This document shows positions 4,699 to 15,232 of a stretch of 15,232 nucleotides of DNA, piece after piece; position 1 is the stretch's first letter; each line of letters opens with the position of its first letter. The translations under genes were made by a program, and so were the position numbers. The DNA comes from a virus. The notes beneath the pieces are model-generated. The model worked only from the letters and a program-made list of their open reading frames with translations. It ran no database searches and was not told the origin of the DNA. Location: UHGV virus genome UHGV-1764584. One strand, 5' to 3'.

Positions 4699-4826
4699 AC
4701 CACAATATGTGGTATTAAAACCACATATTGTGAGTTTTTCAATGGGCGAAACAAAAAATAACCTTCTATTTGTGGTCCACCTCTCGTCTTACCATGTGAA
4801 AACCACTAAATGTGGTAATGTATAAA
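4699..4826. promoter_or_regulatory. Divergent promoter/operator region between the cro-like and cI-like genes
   Basis: Operator-like sites: O1 4699-4713 (ACCACA-ATA-TGTGGT, perfect), O2 4720-4734 (ACCACA-TAT-TGTGAG), O4 4802-4816 (ACCACT-AAA-TGTGGT). Leftward promoter TTGAAA (rc of 4737-4742), 17 bp, TTTAAT (rc of 4714-4719), with O2 in the spacer. Rightward candidate -10 TATAAA at 4821-4826. Confidence 0.55.
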
Positions 4827-4853: not shown

Positions 4854-5510
4854 ATGAAAAGCAACGACGAGAACATCAAGAAAGAAATAGGTCTGCGCAT
4901 TCAGACTCTACGGAAACAATCCGGCATGACTGCCGGAGATCTCCAGCAAGTCACTGGAATAGGCTTAAGCACCTTGCAGAACTATGAGGCCGGATTAAGA
5001 CAACCATCTATACCTGCCATCAAGAAAATCGCGCACGCCCTGAAAGCATCAGCGCCTTATATCGCGTGCTTAACAGATAACCCGTTCCCACCCCAGAATA
5101 CTAACGCTCCTGTTATTCCTGGGCTTGTAGCTATAAAAAATGACATAGCATCGCACGCCGGAGAAAAGCCAGTGCTGGCGATAGAACAGGAGATTCTACG
5201 AAGCAAGAACATCAACCCATCGTCTCTGTCAGTTCTCCAGAGCAACGATGAGTTAATGTCACCAACAATATCCCCTGGCTCCCAAGTCCTGATTAATACA
5301 GACGATACAGAGATTCATGAGGGGATCTATGCCCTTGAAGACAGAAATGGCCTGGTTGTTTTGAGGCACTGTAGAGTCATACCGGGTGACAATGCTGTTA
5401 TGCTGTCAACCGAAAGGGATGCTGAAATGAACACTAAGCATCTGAATAACGAGGAATTTAAGCGTTATAAAGTTCTTGGCCGCGTAGTTAGTGTTGTCAA
5501 CTGGTTATGA
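4854..5510 (+). CDS. cI-like repressor (XRE-type HTH plus LexA/S24-like C-terminal domain)
   Basis: N-terminal HTH (IGLRIQTLRKQSGMTAGDLQQVTGIGLSTLQNYEAG). C-terminal domain shows the S24-like pattern (GIYALEDRNGLVVLR...VLGRVVSV). Confidence 0.8.
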   Translation: MKSNDENIKKEIGLRIQTLRKQSGMTAGDLQQVTGIGLSTLQNYEAGLRQPSIPAIKKIAHALKASAPYIACLTDNPFPPQNTNAPVIPGLVAIKNDIASHAGEKPVLAIEQEILRSKNINPSSLSVLQSNDELMSPTISPGSQVLINTDDTEIHEGIYALEDRNGLVVLRHCRVIPGDNAVMLSTERDAEMNTKHLNNEEFKRYKVLGRVVSVVNWL

Positions 5511-5517
5511 TACACAG

Positions 5518-5533
5518 CACGGCGAAAGCCGTG
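5518..5533 (+). terminator. Short hairpin after the cI-like gene (weak terminator/attenuator candidate)
   Basis: CACGGC-GAAA-GCCGTG, a 6-bp stem with a GAAA loop, followed by CATTTCTACGCTC. Confidence 0.3.
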
Positions 5534-5551
5534 CATTTCTACGCTCAAAAA

Positions 5552-5591
5552 AACCACATTTTGTGGTTTTGACAACATGTAAAAGTATAAA
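5552..5591 (+). promoter_or_regulatory. Operator O5 plus promoter elements upstream of gene 5603-5977
   Basis: O5 at 5552-5568 is a perfect 7-bp-arm palindrome AACCACA-TTT-TGTGGTT. TTGACA at 5569-5574 and TATAAA at 5586-5591 follow. Exact promoter geometry unresolved. Confidence 0.5.
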
Positions 5592-5602: not shown

Positions 5603-5977
5603 ATGGAATTACATACAGCCAATAAAAACGAAACTCTGATCACTGCTGGAATCGAAATCCAAGCGTTGAACATAGCGATTGAGTGTATGTTATGCCAACT
5701 CATTGATAATGAGAAAGATATCGACTGGATAGAATCTATCCTTCATCTGGCATCAGAACAAAAAGTCTGCCTCAAAACGGCCTTACAATACGATGTGCCA
5801 GCGGTATCGAAGCTGTGCCAGTCATTGATGGCATATAACAGGGCTATTATTTCTGTATGCCTCATGATTCTCGATGAAAACCCCCCTCTTAGCGACCGCT
5901 CAGAAGCTGCTCTAACCCTCTCACGTAAACAGCGACAGCTAGCAAATCAACTGATATCAACGATAGCTGACCTCTGA
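5603..5977 (+). CDS. Hypothetical 124-aa protein downstream of the cI-like gene
   Basis: Intact ORF with AAGAGG 6 nt upstream of the ATG, followed by a hairpin at 5981-6000. Predicted mostly helical; no family recognised. Confidence 0.5.
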   Translation: MELHTANKNETLITAGIEIQALNIAIECMLCQLIDNEKDIDWIESILHLASEQKVCLKTALQYDVPAVSKLCQSLMAYNRAIISVCLMILDENPPLSDRSEAALTLSRKQRQLANQLISTIADL

Positions 5978-7294: not shown

Positions 7295-7318
7295 TAAAAA
7301 AGGCCCCCGAAGGGGCCT
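7295..7318 (-). terminator. Rho-independent terminator oriented for minus-strand transcription
   Basis: Stem AGGCCCC/GGGGCCT (7301-7307 with 7312-7318) and loop CGAA. The A-run at 7295-7300 gives a U-run after the hairpin on the minus-strand RNA. Confidence 0.55.
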
Positions 7319-7323
7319 AATCG

Positions 7324-7446
7324 CTACTTGCTGCTAATGTTTATCGTCACATTCAGAGCGTTATCAGTAATCTTCCAACCCTCCCCATGTGGCGTAAACA
7401 AAGCTCCAGTAACAACGATAAAAATACACATACAGTATTTTTTCAT
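7324..7446 (-). CDS. Candidate 40-aa hydrophobic peptide (MKKYCMCIFIVVTGALFTPHGEGWKITDNALNVTINISSK)
   Basis: ATG at 7446 with AAGGG 7 nt upstream; the SD sits in a GGCC...GGCC hairpin. N-terminal hydrophobic segment. Ends just before the terminator at 7295-7318. The ORF track's 60-aa version begins at a non-ATG codon upstream. Confidence 0.35.
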   Translation of the reverse strand: MKKYCMCIFIVVTGALFTPHGEGWKITDNALNVTINISSK

Positions 7447-7677
7447 TGTATGGCCCTTACAGGCCGTTTCACGACATCCCCACCGACGAAAACAACGCGA
7501 GAGCAAGCACGGCTGCTTGTGCTTGCATGTACGGCAACAGGAAATCCTCCCCTAAAGTCGGTGCCCGGGTGCGAATCGGCGGGAAGGTCCACAGGTATTT
7601 TACGATTATTTTAAGATTAGTAATAGGAAAGAAATTAAACGAAAAAAACAGTTTATTTTCACAAAATCAGTAACCTA

Positions 7678-7733
7678 CCCACAATCTGTGAGTTTGCTGA
7701 CACAACAAGAACCACAATTTTTTGATGTATAAT
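7678..7733 (+). promoter_or_regulatory. Operator-like sites and -10 element upstream of the candidate sRNA / antirepressor operon
   Basis: O6 at 7678-7692 (CCCACA-ATC-TGTGAG, close to O2) and half-site O7 at 7711-7716. TATAAT at 7728-7733 is preceded directly by TG. Confidence 0.45.
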
Positions 7734-7738
7734 AGTGG

Positions 7739-7870
7739 ACTATTATTACCTTTTGAGTAAAATCAATTTGCTGCTTGTGCTTGCGTGGTTGTTTATACAA
7801 CAACGTAATGCTGAAAGGACCGCGAATCCGATCAGCACGAAAGAACCGTCCTCAATAGGGCGGTTTTTTT
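7739..7870 (+). ncRNA. Candidate small RNA / terminated leader (about 130 nt)
   Basis: Runs from the TATAAT promoter to a terminator at 7844-7870 (stem AACCGUCC/GGGCGGUU with one G-U pair, loop UCAAUA, then U7). Positions 7770-7787 are complementary to the minus-strand RNA at 7512-7529. Internal hairpin GTTGTT-TATAC-AACAAC at 7788-7804. Confidence 0.35.
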
Positions 7871-8017
7871 GTTTCTGCCTACCAATAAACCCACGCTATG
7901 TGGTTGTCTCTGTTAAAATCCCGCCGTATTGACATGAATGCGCCATTGGTGGACACTTTCCGAGCCGTAGCAAAATCTACGGTCGGGATTGGAACCCCGT
8001 AGACACAATGGCGCATA

Positions 8018-8040
8018 CCGCGTTAGCGGTTTTTTTATGC
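8018..8040 (+). terminator. Second short terminator-like hairpin in the antirepressor leader
   Basis: ACCGC-GTTA-GCGGT followed by T7. A GATTGGAACC 10-mer is repeated at 7988-7997 and 8150-8159. Confidence 0.3.
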
Positions 8041-8202
8041 GTAAAGCACTGCTACACCCAAATTATGGTGGGGCGTGCGGGGGAGTCGTAAGACTCGCCG
8101 GTTCGTCATTGTGTCCGGTAGTTCCAACCCTGCACGTCTCACCACCCAATGATTGGAACCTGACGGTGGTGAGTATCCTTAACCTTTAAGGGAATCATCA
8201 CA

Positions 8203-8394
8203 ATGACAAACCTACCCCATGACTATTACGTCAACCTCGTAAAGATCCTTCTCAAGAAAGCCTCATACGCCGATAAATTACGCCTGGCTGAAATCATCGA
8301 GCGCGAAGCTATGCGCATCGCCAGCAACGATAACGCTGTTTCTGACGCAAAAATCTCCCTCGTAACCAAAGTTGTTATGGGAGGTGCAAAATGA
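8203..8394 (+). CDS. Small protein (63 aa) translationally coupled to the antirepressor gene
   Basis: AAGGGAA RBS; its stop overlaps the antirepressor ATG (ATGA at 8391). Occupies the position that icd has in P1 immI. No sequence family recognised. Confidence 0.5.
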   Translation: MTNLPHDYYVNLVKILLKKASYADKLRLAEIIEREAMRIASNDNAVSDAKISLVTKVVMGGAK

Positions 8395-9542
8395 AAACGC
8401 TTCCGACCGTTAACACCCTACAGCCTATCCTGCATAATCAGATTCCAGTAATCACAACTGAGCTACTCGCCCGCCTTTATGGAACAGAAGCAATCCGTAT
8501 ACAGCAAAATCACCATGAAAATAAAACTCGGTTCATTGAGGGGAAGCACTTCTTTAAAGCTGTTGGTGATGAACTCAAAAATTTGCGACTAGTTTTAAAC
8601 GAGTCACAAAATGAGGTGCAAATTTCCCCCAAAACTCGCTCTCTCATCCTCTGGACAGAACGCGGGGCTGCACGTCACGCCAAAATGCTTGAAACTAACC
8701 AAGCGTGGGATGTGTTCGAACGGCTGGAAGACTGCTATTTCAACCAGAACGCGCAAACGGCCGCGACCGTAACCGTCTCACCAAACAATGCTCGTGAGGT
8801 TGTCGATACGCTCAACGCCAAACCGATGTTTTACATTAAAGTGTGCAACAACGAGCCACTCACAACCTCAGCCGATGTTGCCCAGGCATTCAGCACCACA
8901 AACAATTCCATCGTTATGGCCATCGATGCGTTACGCATTCCTCGCACAGCTGCGGCGCGTCATTTCTTTAAAGAGCAACGACCGTTGGAAGGAAGCGACC
9001 GCGAAATAACAATCTATCGCATGACAAAAGACGGATTTACCTTGCTCATGGAAAGTATCGACGGTCCAGGCGTGAAGGATATCAAGCTGGCCTACATTGA
9101 AGCCTTTAACGCTATCAGCAGCGTGTTAAAAACACAGTACGAGCGCGATCTGGCTAAACGACTGTACCAGGAAAAAACGATTATCCGCGCGGCAACAGAG
9201 CATAATCGGCTATTAACGGAACCGAACTACAGGAAGGAACTAATCAAGGAGTTTGACAAGGCAACAGGGAAAACCAAAGCGGCGCTAAGTCTGCCAGCAA
9301 TGACTCAGGAAAATGTGATATCAGCCTTACTTCTTGATCTGCTCAGAAACGCCAGAGCACTTATCAGCTTTGACGAAAACCTGAATCCTCAGCTCAAGCT
9401 ACTACCACCGACAGGCAAAGTAGTCGACCAGGCTGATCACAACAGCATACTCAGCGTACTGGATGCAAACCTGCCAGCCAGGACACTACAGGATCTGATA
9501 AAAACATGTGCTGATAAGCTGGCACAGAAAAGCAGACCATAA
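8391..9542 (+). CDS. Phage antirepressor (N-terminal ORF6N domain plus Rha/AntA-like domain)
   Basis: N-terminal IPVITTELLARLYGTEAIRIQQNHHENKTRFIEGKHFFK...LILWTERGAARHAKMLETNQAWDVFERLEDCYF is a classic ORF6N pattern. Middle PLTTSADVAQAFSTTNNSIVMAIDAL is Rha/AntA-like. Confidence 0.8.
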   Translation: MKTLPTVNTLQPILHNQIPVITTELLARLYGTEAIRIQQNHHENKTRFIEGKHFFKAVGDELKNLRLVLNESQNEVQISPKTRSLILWTERGAARHAKMLETNQAWDVFERLEDCYFNQNAQTAATVTVSPNNAREVVDTLNAKPMFYIKVCNNEPLTTSADVAQAFSTTNNSIVMAIDALRIPRTAAARHFFKEQRPLEGSDREITIYRMTKDGFTLLMESIDGPGVKDIKLAYIEAFNAISSVLKTQYERDLAKRLYQEKTIIRAATEHNRLLTEPNYRKELIKEFDKATGKTKAALSLPAMTQENVISALLLDLLRNARALISFDENLNPQLKLLPPTGKVVDQADHNSILSVLDANLPARTLQDLIKTCADKLAQKSRP

Positions 9543-9546
9543 CTAC

Positions 9547-9579
9547 AAGGGGCTACGGCCCCTTACTCTTTTCTCTCTT
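9547..9579 (+). terminator. Rho-independent terminator after the antirepressor gene
   Basis: Stem AAGGGGC/GCCCCTT (9547-9553 with 9558-9564), loop TACG, followed by the U-rich ACTCTTTTCTCTCTT. Confidence 0.55.
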
Positions 9580-10279
9580 ATCAACACCAGAGACTTTCTG
9601 AAAATCCTTTCGAATAGCGTCAGCGTCACGCGCCAAGCCCATACTCGAACGTGTCGCCATATGACGAAAATGATCAACTGCCGGAAACAAAGAAATAATG
9701 GACCCAATAGCTTGCAGCAAACTCGCTTTTCTACGCATCATAATTCCACCATAACCGATAACCACCCTTCAGACACAACCCCCCCTCCCCCCATACAGGG
9801 TGCCCTTTACCGGAGTTCCGGCCCCTTCTCAAAAGCATCAAAAAAAGCTCGAGATCGAGTACCGGAACTCATGCCACCAGATAGCTCCACATCGTTTCCA
9901 ATGCTTCGCCGCCGTGTGCGCCCTGTGGCCCACAATCATGCCATTGGTCGTCTGATATACCTTCTTCTGCTCATAGAGCACAGGCGAGTTGTCGCACTCC
10001 TGCCTTTCTCAGACTCGACTTAGTTTAGATCGCTGTTCCTGGCTTGCGTCAGCACACTTTCCCCTTGTACGCATACCCGCGCGCCACTTCGCCCAAAAAC
10101 ACCGAACCCAACGAAGTGGCAAAGACAACGACGCGAGCGTGAGTCTGAAATGGGCACCAGTAAAAAAGGGGTTGCAGGCGCAAAAAGATTTGATTATCTT
10201 TAGACGCAAGAAAGCCGCCCCAATCAAGAGGTGTCTTTTTAAATCCAGCCTACCAAGCAAGATTTAAATTTCAGACTGA

Positions 10280-10310
10280 AAACCGCCCGGCAAGGCGGTT
10301 TTTGTCTTTC
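10280..10310. terminator. Terminator hairpin, usable in both directions
   Basis: 8-bp stem AAACCGCC/GGCGGTTT with loop CGGCAA. A T-run follows on the plus strand and an A-run precedes it. Lies about 50 nt downstream of the minus-strand XRE gene stop. Confidence 0.5.
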
Positions 10311-10351
10311 TGGCGCTTACATTACACCACCATAAAACGATCCGTAAAGGA

Positions 10352-10624
10352 TCATTTGATCCCTTGTTCCAATTCTGCCGACACTTTAACCTTTTCCCAT
10401 ACAAGGGTTTGCAGCCTTAACAGAATCGCATCTTTATCAAGGTGTGAAAGATCCTTAACCATATCGTCAAACGACAGAACGCGAATGGCCATCTCAATGA
10501 CCCTCGGCGGCTCCCCCTTCTCATATCGCTTATATGTAGCCAACGATATCCCAAACTCTTCGGCTGCTCGCTCCTGCGTCCAGTTCATCCCACGACGCCA
10601 TAATTTCAATTCGTAACCCGTCAT
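10352..10624 (-). CDS. XRE-family HTH transcriptional regulator (90 aa)
   Basis: MTGYELKLWRRGMNWTQERAAEEFGISLATYKRYEKGE is a canonical XRE HTH. Divergent from gene 10726-11151. Confidence 0.7.
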   Translation of the reverse strand: MTGYELKLWRRGMNWTQERAAEEFGISLATYKRYEKGEPPRVIEMAIRVLSFDDMVKDLSHLDKDAILLRLQTLVWEKVKVSAELEQGIK

Positions 10625-11798: not shown

Positions 11799-12098
11799 TC
11801 AGATGTTAAACGCTATTCGTTTTCCTGTGGGAAGCTCAACATCCAGGCTTAATTTGCCTCCCATAGCTTCAACGTAACGCTTTAATGTCGCCAGCTTTAA
11901 ATCATTTCCGCGCTGCTCCAGCTTTGTTACTGCTGGCTGGCTTATACCCATCGCCTCAGCAACCTGTTTTTGTGATAACTGGAGTTCTTCACGCATCATC
12001 TGCAAGCCGACCTCAAGAATCATCTCATCTGCCATTTCTTTAATTCGCGCCTGGCTTTCCGGTGAACGGCTGGCAATCGCCTCATCTAATGTTCTCAT
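11799..12098 (-). CDS. HigA-like HTH antitoxin (addiction-module antidote, XRE family)
   Basis: 99 aa with HTH (LSQKQVAEAMGISQPAVTKLEQ). Overlaps the upstream toxin gene by 1 nt; toxin-first order is typical of HigBA. Confidence 0.6.
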   Translation of the reverse strand: MRTLDEAIASRSPESQARIKEMADEMILEVGLQMMREELQLSQKQVAEAMGISQPAVTKLEQRGNDLKLATLKRYVEAMGGKLSLDVELPTGKRIAFNI

Positions 12099-12451
12099 TA
12101 CTTGCTCTCCAGTGTGTTCAGATGTGCTGCAAACTCATCCTCAGCTATACGCACCAGTTTTTCATAAAACCGCTTATCGTTACTTTTGTCTCCTGCACAA
12201 AGAACGATGGCCCGGCGAATCGGATCGAACGCATAAAAGGCTCTTATCGGACGGCCAGAAAACTGAACGCGAAGCTCTTTCATATTTTTGTACCGAGAAC
12301 CTTTTACGGTATCGGCATATGGCCTGGGTAACTCAGGTCCGTAAACCTGTAGCTTTTTCAAATCAGCCAAAACCTTTTCCTGAAGAGCGTCTTCTTGCTC
12401 ATTTAGCCAGTCGTCAAATCGCTGGCTAAAAAGTACCGTCCACATGCTCAA
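12098..12451 (-). CDS. RelE/ParE-superfamily toxin, HigB-like (addiction-module killer protein)
   Basis: 117 aa; the motif AIVLCAGDKSNDKRFYEKLVRIAEDEF matches the recalled LLCGGDKS pattern of these toxins. AGGA RBS. Confidence 0.6.
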   Translation of the reverse strand: MSMWTVLFSQRFDDWLNEQEDALQEKVLADLKKLQVYGPELPRPYADTVKGSRYKNMKELRVQFSGRPIRAFYAFDPIRRAIVLCAGDKSNDKRFYEKLVRIAEDEFAAHLNTLESK

Positions 12452-12520: not shown

Positions 12521-12688
12521 ATTTAACATAATGGACGTTATCGGCACCACCGGATCACCGTTCATTGTCGGATCTAAAAAATCCGCTCAAAAGATCATGT
12601 TTTCCTGGGCGTTTTCCACCGTTTTTATGTTGCTTATTTGTTAATGAAATCTCGTTTTCAGTTTCGCCTCATTTTCGACGCGAAAGCC

Positions 12689-12979
12689 CTATTTTTGTGA
12701 CTTTACTCCTGGCATATGGACTTCCCAGCGACGAATCCCCATAGCTGCGCAAAAATCAGCCACATAATTCAATCCCGCCCATTCGCGGATACCACCACGG
12801 GCTTTTTCAATGAAAACGGCAATCCCTTTTTTATTGAGAGCAAAAAGCCGCCAGCTTTTTGTCACTTCGTCCTGGGTAGCCACAACACAAGTGAAAGCTC
12901 CCATGCGATACAGGTCCAAGAACTCTTTGCGTGTTTTGCGTACAAGTTCCATAACAAACCTCATATTTGCATGTTTCAA
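12689..12979 (-). CDS. Hypothetical 96-aa protein
   Basis: Intact ORF, ATGA-coupled to the upstream gene 12976-13275. Not recognised. Confidence 0.45.
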   Translation of the reverse strand: MKHANMRFVMELVRKTRKEFLDLYRMGAFTCVVATQDEVTKSWRLFALNKKGIAVFIEKARGGIREWAGLNYVADFCAAMGIRRWEVHMPGVKSQK

Positions 12980-13275
12980 ACATCTGTTTTGTTATCAATG
13001 AAGATTAACCCTAACCCAGCGAAGTAACACAGCAGCGCCCAGGCTGCATACGGAATGCTGGATCTGGATGTGGACTCCTTTAACATCTGCCAGTTGCGAA
13101 CATTGCGACTATCTTTTAAGCCAAGTTTTTTGGCCAACTGCGAGCCGCTCATTCCGGTCAGGCCAATGACTGCCCGAACTTCTCCACATGTAGGAGATTC
13201 CCATTCATCCGCTTTTTTTAAACAAGCCGGATTCAACATTTTTAAAACAGTATCTTTATCCATAACCATCTCCAT
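12976..13275 (-). CDS. Small HTH-containing protein with C-terminal hydrophobic segment (99 aa)
   Basis: HTH-like GLTGMSGSQLAKKLGLKDSRNVRNWQ; C-terminal IPYAAWALLCYFAGLGLIF looks like a membrane anchor. Confidence 0.45.
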   Translation of the reverse strand: MEMVMDKDTVLKMLNPACLKKADEWESPTCGEVRAVIGLTGMSGSQLAKKLGLKDSRNVRNWQMLKESTSRSSIPYAAWALLCYFAGLGLIFIDNKTDV

Positions 13276-13509
13276 TTATTATATCTACGATGGTAGGAAA
13301 TCTTTTCCTATGTGGCAATAGAAATTTACTACATTGCGTATAAGACAAGTTTTCTATGTCTAATAGGAAATGATGTTTCTTACGTTTTATCGCGTTCTGA
13401 TGGCTACTGTGTGCGTATTTATCGACGTTTATTGATAAGGCTCGCCCCTTCCTCCTGCAAAGCCCGGCCGTAGGCCTTATTTCGGCCTTATATAAATTGA
13501 TTTTGTATA

Positions 13510-13622
13510 GTTCGAAACGCGCCGTTTCGAAAAGGATGATCAGGCTGCTCCATGCCTCCGGCAAGTGCCGGAGGAGGTATATTTGAGCGTAGCGACTCGA
13601 ACCGGCGCGAGCTTTAGCTCGC
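13510..13622. repeat. Cluster of GC-rich perfect palindromes downstream of the origin
   Basis: TTCGAAACG-CGC-CGTTTCGAA (13510-13530), CCTCCGGCA-AG-TGCCGGAGG (13555-13574), GCGAGCT-TT-AGCTCGC (13607-13622). Confidence 0.5.
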
Positions 13623-13639
13623 TGCAAGGGCGAACATAT

Positions 13640-13900
13640 TCACAGGCAAAGCCTGCGTAAGTTAAATAAAGAAAGTTTTAATAAAAGAAAGTGATTTTGC
13701 ATTTATTTGTTTAGTGCATCTATTATAAAAAACCATTTGCATATACATATCAAAACTGTGGATAACTTTATTAGCCGATGCCTGTAAAGGCGATATTTTT
13801 GCTGTGTTCAGGTTTAGAGAAAATTAATTTAGATTGTTTTTTGAACAGATATTTTATTGCGACGTAGATAATCCTCCGGTAAAACCGGATTCATCATTCA
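13640..13900. other. Candidate IncFII-type vegetative origin (oriR-like AT-rich region with DnaA box)
   Basis: Immediately downstream of repA. Perfect DnaA box TTATCCACA (rc of 13757-13765), strongly AT-rich, direct repeat AAAGAAAGT at 13669-13677 and 13683-13691. Confidence 0.5.
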
Positions 13901-13906
13901 GGTGGG

Positions 13907-14755
13907 TTAATGTTGGAGTGATTTCCAGGTCTTTCTTAGCCTGTTATAACGCTGCTCAACGAGGGAGCGTAAATATGCAAGGTCAGCACCAGGATACATG
14001 CCATCAGCAAATTCCTGGCTAACCTCTCTAGTGATTTGATGGCGAAGTTCGGCCTCTCCCTTTTCCTGAACAAGACGCGCAGCTCTCTCCGCTGCTTTCT
14101 GTTTTGCCTTTATCTCTCTGGCCGTCTTCCTCTGACGCCATACATTCTCCATCTGCTCCTGAATAACAATACGCTTATAATCAGCCTCCGTTATCGCTTT
14201 TTTAAGCCGTTCGCTATTCTTCGCATTGAAGTAATTAAGTTTCTGGCTAACCGCACGTCTCCATGCTTGTTCAGTAATACCAACTGTTTCCAGCAGTTGA
14301 TCACGAATCTCGATTTTCGCTGGCCAATACTGTTTATTCACCCGATCCCAGCGACGTTCATAATCAATAAAACCTAACTCTTTCAGTTGCGACAACGCCC
14401 TTGTACAGCGCGTTATAGACTTGTTCCCAGCTTCGGATACGGTAGACAGGCCGCAAAAATCAGCCAACGCCTCAGCACTGGCCAGAACCCGCTTAGAAAT
14501 GATGTTTACATGGTGCAAAATCGCAGCAATCACAGCATTAATCGCCCGACGACGATGCTCGTTTATCCGGCGTTTCCGCTCTGACGGTTGATTAACGTAG
14601 AACGCAACCTCACACGTAAGATCACGACCATTAATGCGCTGTAAAGCATCAGATAACACCAGCGGCAGCTTGTGCGTATGGTGCTTTGGAGGCTGGAACT
14701 CCGGCGACAAATTACAAACGTAAGCTGAACGTAGAGACGGCATTGGTCTATCCAT
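13907..14755 (-). CDS. repA: IncFII-family replication initiator RepA1
   Basis: RRRAINAVIAAILHH...VLASAEALADFCGLSTVSEAGNKSITRCTRALSQLKELGFIDYERRWD aligns by eye with R100/R1 RepA1. Start set at the internal Met (MDRPMPS), giving 282 aa against about 285 for RepA1; the open frame extends to 14899. Confidence 0.8.
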   Translation of the reverse strand: MDRPMPSLRSAYVCNLSPEFQPPKHHTHKLPLVLSDALQRINGRDLTCEVAFYVNQPSERKRRINEHRRRAINAVIAAILHHVNIISKRVLASAEALADFCGLSTVSEAGNKSITRCTRALSQLKELGFIDYERRWDRVNKQYWPAKIEIRDQLLETVGITEQAWRRAVSQKLNYFNAKNSERLKKAITEADYKRIVIQEQMENVWRQRKTAREIKAKQKAAERAARLVQEKGEAELRHQITREVSQEFADGMYPGADLAYLRSLVEQRYNRLRKTWKSLQH

Positions 14756-14765
14756 ATGTTCGCTC

Positions 14766-14882
14766 TTGCGTCCACGGAAAACCAACGTATAATGGGAGTT
14801 GTCGAGGCGCCCATGGTTAGTTGTTGGTTTTCCTTTCCGTGGATGTCGCAAGAAGCCCGCAGATTTATCTGCGGGCTTTTTG
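14766..14882 (+). ncRNA. CopA-like antisense RNA with its promoter, opposite the repA leader
   Basis: -35 TTGCGT (14766-14771), 16 bp, -10 TATAAT (14788-14793). Terminator stem AAGCCCGCAGA/TCTGCGGGCTT (14853-14878) followed by TTTTTGTTT. The RNA would be about 83 nt, complementary to the region 45-130 nt upstream of the repA start. Confidence 0.55.
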
Positions 14883-14913
14883 TTTCCATATCTGGTCACT
14901 TTTCAACCAGACA

Positions 14914-14941
14914 CCCACAATCATAACCACGTTACGTGGTT
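14914..14941. promoter_or_regulatory. Palindromic operator candidate in the repA promoter region
   Basis: AACCACG-T-TACGTGGTT (14925-14941, 8-bp arms) preceded by CCCACAATC (14914-14922), identical to the left 9 nt of O6. On the minus strand it lies just upstream of a TATGAT -10 candidate. Confidence 0.4.
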
Positions 14942-15070
14942 TTAAGAGAACTCTACCACAACACTTTCGGTCATGCACGAAGTCTCTCACTGATCGAACG
15001 ATAATCCACCAGTAAAAGGATCTAAATTGGATCTCGTTTTGCGAGCATCATACTACTGGCCTAACTCCAG

Positions 15071-15220
15071 TCAATGATTCCCAGCCGGAAACCTGCGGTA
15101 AAGCGTGGATAAGGTAACATCGAAGATAATCGCTATCCGCTTACGTGAAACACCATTCGCAATAAGCCTTCCGATCTGGGGTTCTACGCCGGAACCGCCG
15201 GAATTTCCGGCCTGTGATTT
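15071..15220 (-). pseudogene. Remnant of a serine recombinase (resolvase/invertase) C-terminal HTH
   Basis: Minus-strand frame reads ...PQIGRLIANGVSRKRIAIIFDVTLSTLYRRFPAGNH*, matching the Hin/Gin/resolvase C-terminal HTH. The frame is closed by an in-frame stop at 15221-15223 with no start codon. Confidence 0.35.
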
Positions 15221-15232
15221 TTAGTGGTCCTT

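Follow-up and report, generated by a model that had tools for sequence, protein, structure and literature searches.

The CI protein of coliphage 186 is the textbook example of a non-cleavable repressor, and lambda CI, LexA and UmuD (MEROPS S24) are self-cleaving proteins. Inactivation of 186 CI is by an antirepressor and not by cleavage (cited in PMC3121763). Gifsy repressors such as GfoR of Gifsy-1 comprise 136 aa and are equivalent to the N-terminal domain of lambda CI alone, the Gifsy antirepressors are directly repressed by LexA, and antirepressors are able to act on non-cognate repressors (PMC3121763). For Gifsy-1 a layer of RNA control has been described, in which IsrK acts in trans to open a leader whose orf45 translation is coupled to that of the antirepressor AnrP; a processed C4-like RNA follows IsrK, and it is AnrP that triggers prophage induction in stationary phase (PMC4825925). 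In P1, control of the antirepressor Ant lies with C4 and icd (PMC8201110). The locus described here combines a repressor resembling 186 CI with an antirepressor cassette resembling those of P1 and Gifsy-1.

The window, i.e. the whole analysed stretch of 15,232 nucleotides from the virus genome UHGV-1764584, covers the region for immunity and maintenance in a circular, myovirus-type phage-plasmid of ca. 48–49 kb. It encodes ParA and an IncFII-type RepA (NCBIfam RepA_IncFII_LM, 232 bits versus a cut-off of 70). A segment of 1.8 kb around the repressor gene cI is present at an identity of at least 95% in 58 non-mobilisable PLSDB plasmids of 46–51 kb (57 from Escherichia, one from Klebsiella), and the same segment is 99.3–99.6% identical to that of three phages isolated on Yersinia pestis EV76, vB_YpM_39, 41 and 44, on whose names a literature search retrieved nothing. 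Phage-plasmids of 48 kb are common in Escherichia and, as their isolation as Yersinia phages indicates, also form infective virions. The complete sister plasmid NZ_CP023368 p48 (48.8 kb) carries terminase, portal, capsid, contractile-tail, baseplate, holin and endolysin genes. Divergently from cI, an early operon runs to the genes for the Ref nuclease, DUF1064, DUF3560, Ead/Ea22, holin and endolysin; the product of its first gene has no Pfam or NCBIfam match, and this gene is syntenic in all relatives examined. The window further encodes a 90-aa HTH protein at 10352–10624. Scanning the non-coding stretches 9500–10400, 13250–13950 and 14850–15232 for repeats gave nothing notable.

The product of cI reads as a two-domain CI-type repressor consisting of an intact helix-turn-helix (HTH) domain and a C-terminal domain of S24 fold, accompanied by palindromes at a divergent promoter (Table 1). 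In the HTH region, residues 34–49 are invariant across the family alignment and AlphaFold predicts residues 11–60 with a pLDDT of 90–98. The best family matches are the phage repressors phrog_4 and phrog_6201, the former being a large repressor family that matches residues 4–217 (E 1e-26). The Pfam match of the C-terminal part to Peptidase_S24 (PF00717) is sub-threshold (residues 113–212, 18.4 bits versus a gathering value of 23.3, E 0.0018). The homology is nevertheless considered real because a PHROG family of CI-like repressor C-terminal domains matches residues 110–214 (E 2.9e-9), because 558 proteins at E ≤ 1e-3 were retrieved when the C-terminal domain of the relatives was used in an exhaustive HMM search, and because of the AlphaFold model. 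A word-indexed search yielded only 13 close clusters at an identity of at least 60%. Modelling on an alignment of 128 sequences resulted in a mean pLDDT of 91, with 91–97 across residues 111–210; from 12 close family members only, the C-terminal domain was unusable (pLDDT below 50). The model predicts a LexA/UmuD-like beta fold for the C-terminal domain, Foldseek returned a lambda-186 hybrid repressor and 186 CI as top matches, and the matches among viral models are proteins named 'Repressor protein CI'. Judged from alignments and model together, the C-terminal domain is a folded and conserved member of the S24 structural superfamily without its catalytic machinery, and thus a predicted pseudo-peptidase.

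Linking the repressor to S24 proteins required intermediate sequences as well as structure. Alignment of the narrow family profile with single LexA or lambda CI sequences by hhalign was unsuccessful, and PDB sequence searches with the protein, the family profile and the C-terminal-domain profile gave HTH proteins only and no S24 chain. E. coli LexA, lambda CI and UmuD were therefore compared via a profile of 128 C-terminal-domain relatives, to which all three were aligned; in the sequences used, the catalytic residues land on the published numbers, and the profile ranges agree with PDB matches to UmuD' and the lambda repressor. Leu134 shares its profile column with the nucleophiles S119 of LexA, S149 of lambda CI and S60 of UmuD, and Arg171 shares that of the general bases K156, K192 and K97, respectively. 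In the hmmsearch alignment the Leu134 column contains Ser in 120 of 163 aligned domains (GDSMxPTI versus DELMSPTI), and Arg171 corresponds to the Lys of V-K-R-L, the segment V-V-L-R-H-C-R being aligned with V-V-V-K-R-V-Q. The flanking motifs M-x-P-T-I and G-R-V-V are conserved between the repressor and S24 proteins. The profile alignment thus confirms at the sequence level that both catalytic residues of the dyad are replaced, Ser by Leu134 and Lys by Arg171. The first-pass annotation had read Leu instead of Ser in N-D-E-L-M-S-P (residues 131–137) and L-R-H-C (residues 170–173) at the Lys position from an alignment by eye that it feared to be off by a residue; that alignment turns out to be exact and unshifted, and neither Ser nor Lys is found in the catalytic columns. 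Residues L134, R171, H172, C173 and R174 are invariant among the 12 family members (61–67% identity), and in the same alignment there is no invariant Lys anywhere in the C-terminal domain. Given the occupation of the dyad columns and the lack of an invariant Lys, canonical RecA-stimulated self-cleavage of the 218-aa repressor is very unlikely. The earlier conditional conclusion that this repressor cannot cleave itself is supported as far as the canonical reaction is concerned, but the Gifsy-type wiring attached to it is not.

Table 1. Features of the cI and ant regions (positions refer to the window).
Feature	Position	Strand	Basis or remark
First gene of the divergent early operon, 164 aa	4186..4680	-	ORF; phrog_7452 (function not known)
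Putative operator O1, ACCACAATATGTGGT	4699..4713	.	Palindrome; just downstream of the leftward promoter -10
Putative leftward early promoter, TTGAAA-17 nt-TTTAAT	4714..4742	-	Inferred from sequence reading
Putative operator O2, ACCACATATTGTGAG	4720..4734	.	Fills the 17-nt promoter spacer; 21 bp centre-to-centre from O1
Putative operator O3, ACCACTAAATGTGGT	4802..4816	.	39-51 nt upstream of the cI start
CI-type immunity repressor, 218 aa	4854..5510	+	ATG 4854, TGA 5508-5510
Helix-turn-helix domain, residues 16-69	4899..5060	+	Pfam HTH_3, E 4.5e-11
Predicted pseudo-peptidase C-terminal domain, about residues 108-218	5175..5507	+	Presumed dimerisation/cooperativity
Leu134 codon TTA, at the catalytic Ser nucleophile position	5253..5255	+	Profile column
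Arg171 codon AGG, at the catalytic Lys general base position	5364..5366	+	Profile column
Putative operator O4, ACCACATTTTGTGGT	5553..5567	.	After the cI hairpin 5517-5534, upstream of ORF 5603-5977
IsrK-like sRNA	7964..8036	+	Rfam RF01394, 67.7 bits vs gathering 50
C4 antisense RNA	8061..8149	+	Rfam RF01695, 77.8 bits vs gathering 45
63-aa leader ORF	8203..8394	+	ORF; phrog_7886; positional analogue of P1 icd and Gifsy-1 orf45
Antirepressor candidate (Ant), 383 aa, ORF6N + Rha domains	8391..9542	+	Pfam, PHROG

The surroundings of cI are marked by a 15-bp palindrome, ACCACA-N3-TGTGGT, with nine strand-specific matches at six sites compared to 0.26 expected by chance. A search with the core pattern gave 14 matches versus 5.3 expected; the sites with no or one mismatch cluster around cI, and in the whole sister plasmid they are likewise concentrated in the cI region. 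The palindromes, of which O1–O4 are the strong copies, are candidate operators, and their positions suggest the logic of repression. The leftward promoter overlapping O2 was missed by a consensus promoter scan, which demands an A at the second position of the -10 hexamer; it would drive the first early gene together with the downstream early and lysis genes. O3 sits just upstream of a TATAAA hexamer resembling a -10 box, a position from which autoregulation of cI is probable, and its core is kept at -51 to -39 in L004 and at -53 to -41 in L006, two loci of Citrobacter and Klebsiella relatives whose repressors are 61–65% identical. At 7679, 7891 and 14927 there are weak operator-like sites that might link cI with the immI promoter, in the manner of the C1 operator in P1; no operator-like site is found near isrK in L004.

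The antirepressor on which derepression had been proposed to depend is indeed encoded downstream. The product of 8391–9542 matches Pfam ORF6N (E 3e-20) and Phage_pRha (E 4e-12) as well as several PHROG anti-repressor families (E 1e-61 to 1e-24), and its N-terminal 119–133 residues share 55–69% identity with regions of Stx phages, several of which are annotated as antirepressor. The gene is preceded by an IsrK-like sRNA with its own terminator (8017–8030), a C4 antisense RNA and a short leader ORF. The loop sequences of C4, GTCATTGTGTC (8105–8115) and GTTCCAA (8121–8127), have exact complements of 7–9 nt on both sides, downstream at 8199–8207 (CACAATGAC) and 8153–8159 and upstream inside IsrK at 8002–8010 and 7989–7995. 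The target at 8199–8207 covers the ATG of the leader at 8203, and the stop codon of the leader and the start codon of ant overlap in ATGA (8391–8394). We infer from this overlap, and by analogy with Gifsy-1 (PMC4825925), that translation of leader and ant may be coupled. A LexA box (CTGT-N8-ACAG with up to one mismatch) is absent from the region near ant (7900–8400), and the single exact copy in the whole 48.8-kb sister plasmid lies within a structural gene, with 0.53 expected by chance. A LexA-controlled antirepressor as in the Gifsy, 186 and N15 model was accordingly rejected.

Consistent with these data, the best overall explanation, to which we assign a probability of about 0.6, is that cI encodes the immunity repressor of the phage-plasmid, carries a pseudo-peptidase domain and is derepressed in trans, with the RNA-gated Ant as the best candidate. 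In this scenario, the HTH domain would bind ACCACA-N3-TGTGGT at O1 and O2 on the leftward promoter, at O3 on the cI promoter and at O4 downstream of cI, while the role left to the C-terminal domain would be dimerisation and cooperative operator binding, for which it also serves in lambda CI and 186 CI. The repressor would be unable to inactivate itself on RecA filaments, so that derepression would need a trans-acting factor, for which the ORF6N/Rha antirepressor is the best candidate. Pairing of C4 across the leader start codon would hold off Ant synthesis post-transcriptionally via the coupling, and the IsrK-like sRNA, which contains these target sequences as well, could act by titrating C4 or by opening the leader. 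Induction would accordingly depend on shifts in the balance between IsrK and C4 and not on direct LexA cleavage.

How far derepression depends on Ant can be judged from the distribution of its cassette, and the most serious alternative arises here. The non-cleavable repressor might be inactivated otherwise, for instance by another phage-plasmid protein such as the product of ORF 5603–5977 or the HTH protein encoded at 10352–10624, by a host protease or by dilution and copy number, and Ant might be an accessory, perhaps directed against co-resident prophages. Among the relatives with repressors of 61–65% identity, L006 from K. aerogenes retains the dead dyad but lacks isrK, C4 and ant at the corresponding place; in L005 the C4 is weak and the Rha gene truncated, and L004 possesses isrK, C4 and leader but a Rha-only protein without ORF6N, i.e. 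with an altered N-terminus. Because the cassette is absent in the first, degraded in the second and altered in the third, Ant is a variable cassette and not an obligate partner of the repressor, which is itself conserved together with its dead dyad. ORF 5603–5977, in addition, is syntenic in every relative examined and lies behind O4, and the reported action of antirepressors on non-cognate repressors (PMC3121763) would suit an accessory role. Against this alternative, the cassette is kept to at least 80% in 58 of 60 matching plasmid records (these 58 and the 58 records with the cI region are separately counted sets of identical number), and Pfam, PHROG and NCBIfam reveal no second antirepressor-like protein in the window. 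Moreover, isrK and C4 occupy the same place in the metagenomic loci L008 and L009, where dead-dyad repressors of only ca. 30% identity are embedded in the same synteny of early operon, repressor, small ORF, ParA and small ORF; in L009 they are followed by a 338-aa ORF6N protein, and L008 also carries Rfam c4-a1b1. The comparison of these sequences indicates that the link between cassette and repressor is old and frequent but not obligatory. Dependence of derepression on Ant is thus plausible, and inactivation by another route is possible although clearly the less probable of the two.

A more far-reaching version of the RNA-gated Ant scenario can be envisaged, which we consider doubtful. It would describe an SOS-blind lineage in which the former S24 active-site cleft with the invariant R171-H172-C173-R174 serves as a docking or sensing surface, the pseudo-protease domain as the receptor for Ant, and the IsrK/C4 timer as the sole switch, responding to growth-phase or nutrient cues as Gifsy-1 IsrK; the whole would then be a hybrid of lambda and P1 immunity.

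Self-cleavage by non-canonical residues, either His172/Cys173 or another Ser, would render induction directly RecA-dependent. The invariance of R171-H172-C173-R174 does reveal a constraint on the former active-site strand (residues 168–176 in the model, carrying His172 and Cys173), the S24 fold and the strand corresponding to the cleavage-site region are retained in the model, and an Ala103-Gly104 pair is present in this repressor. The latter reads SG, TG, AG or a deletion among the relatives and is hence not conserved. The A111-G112 scissile bond of lambda CI aligns to Lys95-Asn96, yet the alignment of this linker is poor and the model is of low confidence there (pLDDT 61–75 at residues 81–110). 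Leu is incapable of acting as a nucleophile, the C-terminal domain offers no invariant Lys, and the side chains of His172 and Cys173, being adjacent on a beta-strand, should face in opposite directions according to the model. The loss of the dyad also recurs in many relatives without a His-Cys pair. Among the best 148 non-family matches, Ser and Lys are both kept in 104 and both absent in 21, the latter being enriched near the top (11 of the 25 closest non-family matches). Some of the proteins without the dyad cluster as a group of their own (P0016, 19, 21, 35, 120 and 136) and others have nearest neighbours bearing Ser and Lys, which argues for repeated independent loss. The Lys position in these proteins is mostly taken by Arg (LRWIR, FRWGR, IRFVR, LRRIR and FRHCR, the first four without His-Cys). 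Dyad loss is therefore recurrent and not very unusual, and would not surprise a specialist; a literature search on dead-dyad S24 repressors found nothing specific. Taken together, a non-canonical cleavage reaction appears highly improbable. Equally improbable is a function of cI as a plasmid-maintenance regulator instead of a lysis-lysogeny repressor since, although a small ORF, parA and a small parB/parG-like ORF follow the gene in this order in every relative examined, the strongest operators lie on the divergent early-operon promoter toward the lysis genes and not before parA, and the best family matches (phrog_4, phrog_6201) and structural matches are phage repressors and phage CI proteins.

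For a phage-plasmid widespread in Escherichia, the derepression of a non-cleavable repressor in trans leads to the testable prediction that induction is independent of the SOS response or only indirectly dependent on it. As a direct RecA response is not expected and the only recognisable inducer lies behind an sRNA/antisense switch devoid of a LexA box, DNA-damaging antibiotics are predicted to elicit a weak or indirect response, and cues of stationary phase or nutrient status may be of greater importance. The repressor is a well-supported addition to the S24 pseudo-peptidases, in which the domain would be kept for assembly rather than for catalysis.

No new principle has to be invoked, as 186 CI, P1 immI and Gifsy-1 IsrK already cover each element of this locus. 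With lambda CI, the repressor shares the domain order and the location of operators flanking a divergent promoter; in contrast to the self-cleaving lambda CI, LexA and UmuD, it carries Leu134/Arg171, stays below the Pfam gathering value and is not expected to be cleaved. The closest analogue of the protein is 186 CI. A weak hhalign alignment that is not significant (E 0.13, 112 columns) places a Gly of 186 CI in the Ser position and an Arg in the Lys position, with the corresponding segments DGMA/DELMS, ISIRELTKLPG/VVLRHCRVIPG and GRVVGV/GRVVSV (186 CI first). The two systems differ, however. Tum, the antirepressor of 186, is under direct repression by LexA, and a LexA box is not found here; 186, unlike the present phage-plasmid, is a chromosomally integrating phage whose switch is laid out differently. 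The assignment to Gifsy-type prophages made in the first-pass annotation does not hold, because the Gifsy repressors are single-domain proteins of 136 aa, in contrast to the 218 aa and the folded LexA-like C-terminal domain found here, and because a LexA box is lacking at ant. What is shared with GfoA/GfhA of Gifsy and AntC of N15 is the logic of a non-cleavable repressor combined with a trans-acting antirepressor (PMC3121763); these are LexA-controlled, however, whereas control at the present locus, which has no meaningful LexA box, appears to be RNA-based. For the control of ant, P1 immI or Gifsy-1 IsrK is, judged by layout, the closest analogue. The layout of isrK-orf45-anrP in Gifsy-1, with IsrK sRNA, C4-like RNA, short ORF and antirepressor, recurs here. 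With immI of P1 and P7 the locus has in common that each C4 loop is complementary to one upstream and one downstream site and that the downstream C4 target covers the start of a short ORF overlapping ant; P1 is, moreover, likewise a plasmid prophage. The differences are that C4 is preceded here by an IsrK-like sRNA that has a terminator of its own, and that the primary repressor is a lambda/186-type protein with HTH domain and S24 fold, the C1 repressor of P1 being of an unrelated type.

The strand of the repressor cI (gene at 4854-5510) that formerly carried an active-site residue bears a conserved signature: residues 171-174 (5364-5375) read R-H-C-R and are invariant in the repressor family. 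The motif recurs as FRHCR in P0019, a relative whose S24 dyad is likewise replaced, and an R-x-x-R pattern is found in other relatives of this dead-dyad type. The 124-residue ORF behind the putative operator O4 has no match in Pfam or NCBIfam. It keeps its place 3′ of the repressor gene in all the relatives examined, even where identity is only ~30%. It may encode a repressor-controlled function, and an alternative modulator of immunity is possible. The small HTH protein of 90 residues is conserved in all relatives, that from K. aerogenes included, and the adjoining ~800 bp (9543-10350) neither match an Rfam family nor contain a convincing ORF.

Features of the immunity and maintenance region, with strand where assigned
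Feature	Position	Strand	Remark
ORF, 124 aa, phrog_7632	5603-5977	+	directly behind O4
RyfA-family RNA	7296-7592	-	Rfam, 144.5 bits
Operator-like site	7679-7691		one mismatch to core; near ryfA-divergent promoter
Stretch divergent from ryfA	about 7740-7875	+	contains copied 15-nt segment
Operator-like site	7891-7903		one mismatch to core; upstream of putative isrK promoter (TTGACA at 7930)
IsrK-like sRNA	7964-8036	+	cassette 5′ of ant
C4 antisense RNA	8061-8149	+	cassette 5′ of ant
Leader ORF, 63 aa	8203-8394	+	cassette 5′ of ant
Second small HTH protein, 90 aa, phrog_6962	10352-10624	-	adjoins 9543-10350
HigB/RelE-ParE-family toxin (117 aa) and HTH antitoxin (99 aa), paired	11799-12451	-	annotation
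RepA replication initiator, IncFII-type	13907-14899	-	NCBIfam RepA_IncFII_LM, 232 bits

Functions for plasmid maintenance are also encoded. The IncFII-type RepA indicates that the phage-plasmid uses an F-family replicon. In Salmonella, RyfA encodes the type I toxin TimP, and the RyfA-family RNA of the window is accompanied by a small hydrophobic ORF (MKKYCMCIFIVVTGALF...). The segment 7770-7784 in the divergent stretch is an exact 15-nt copy of 7512-7526, and a plus-strand RNA transcribed from there would therefore be complementary to ryfA. Near 7845-7875 the stretch closes with a hairpin and T-run resembling a terminator. It has the appearance of a TimR-like antitoxin sRNA, and so possibly constitutes an addiction module together with the RyfA-family RNA. 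The HigB-type toxin/antitoxin pair, so annotated in the E. coli sister plasmid NZ_CP023368 and the Yersinia phage, is a second stabilisation module.

In the RNA cassette preceding the antirepressor candidate gene ant, the start codon of the leader ORF falls among 9 nt that are exactly complementary to the C4 loop; the leader's stop codon overlaps the ant start. In the Citrobacter relative (L004), a "Phage_ASH" ORF was called at 12537-12734, overlapping a C4 RNA match at 12590-12677; "ash family protein" annotations at the C4 position in plasmid records may be miscalls over an RNA gene. The two sites resembling the operator core are also present in the sister plasmid; a search near isrK of L004 found none.

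The arrangement of the cassette upstream of ant resembles both immI of P1 and isrK of Gifsy-1. In P1, a C1 operator ties the repressor to immI; in the window, the two operator-like sites may connect cI to the immI-like cassette in the same manner.
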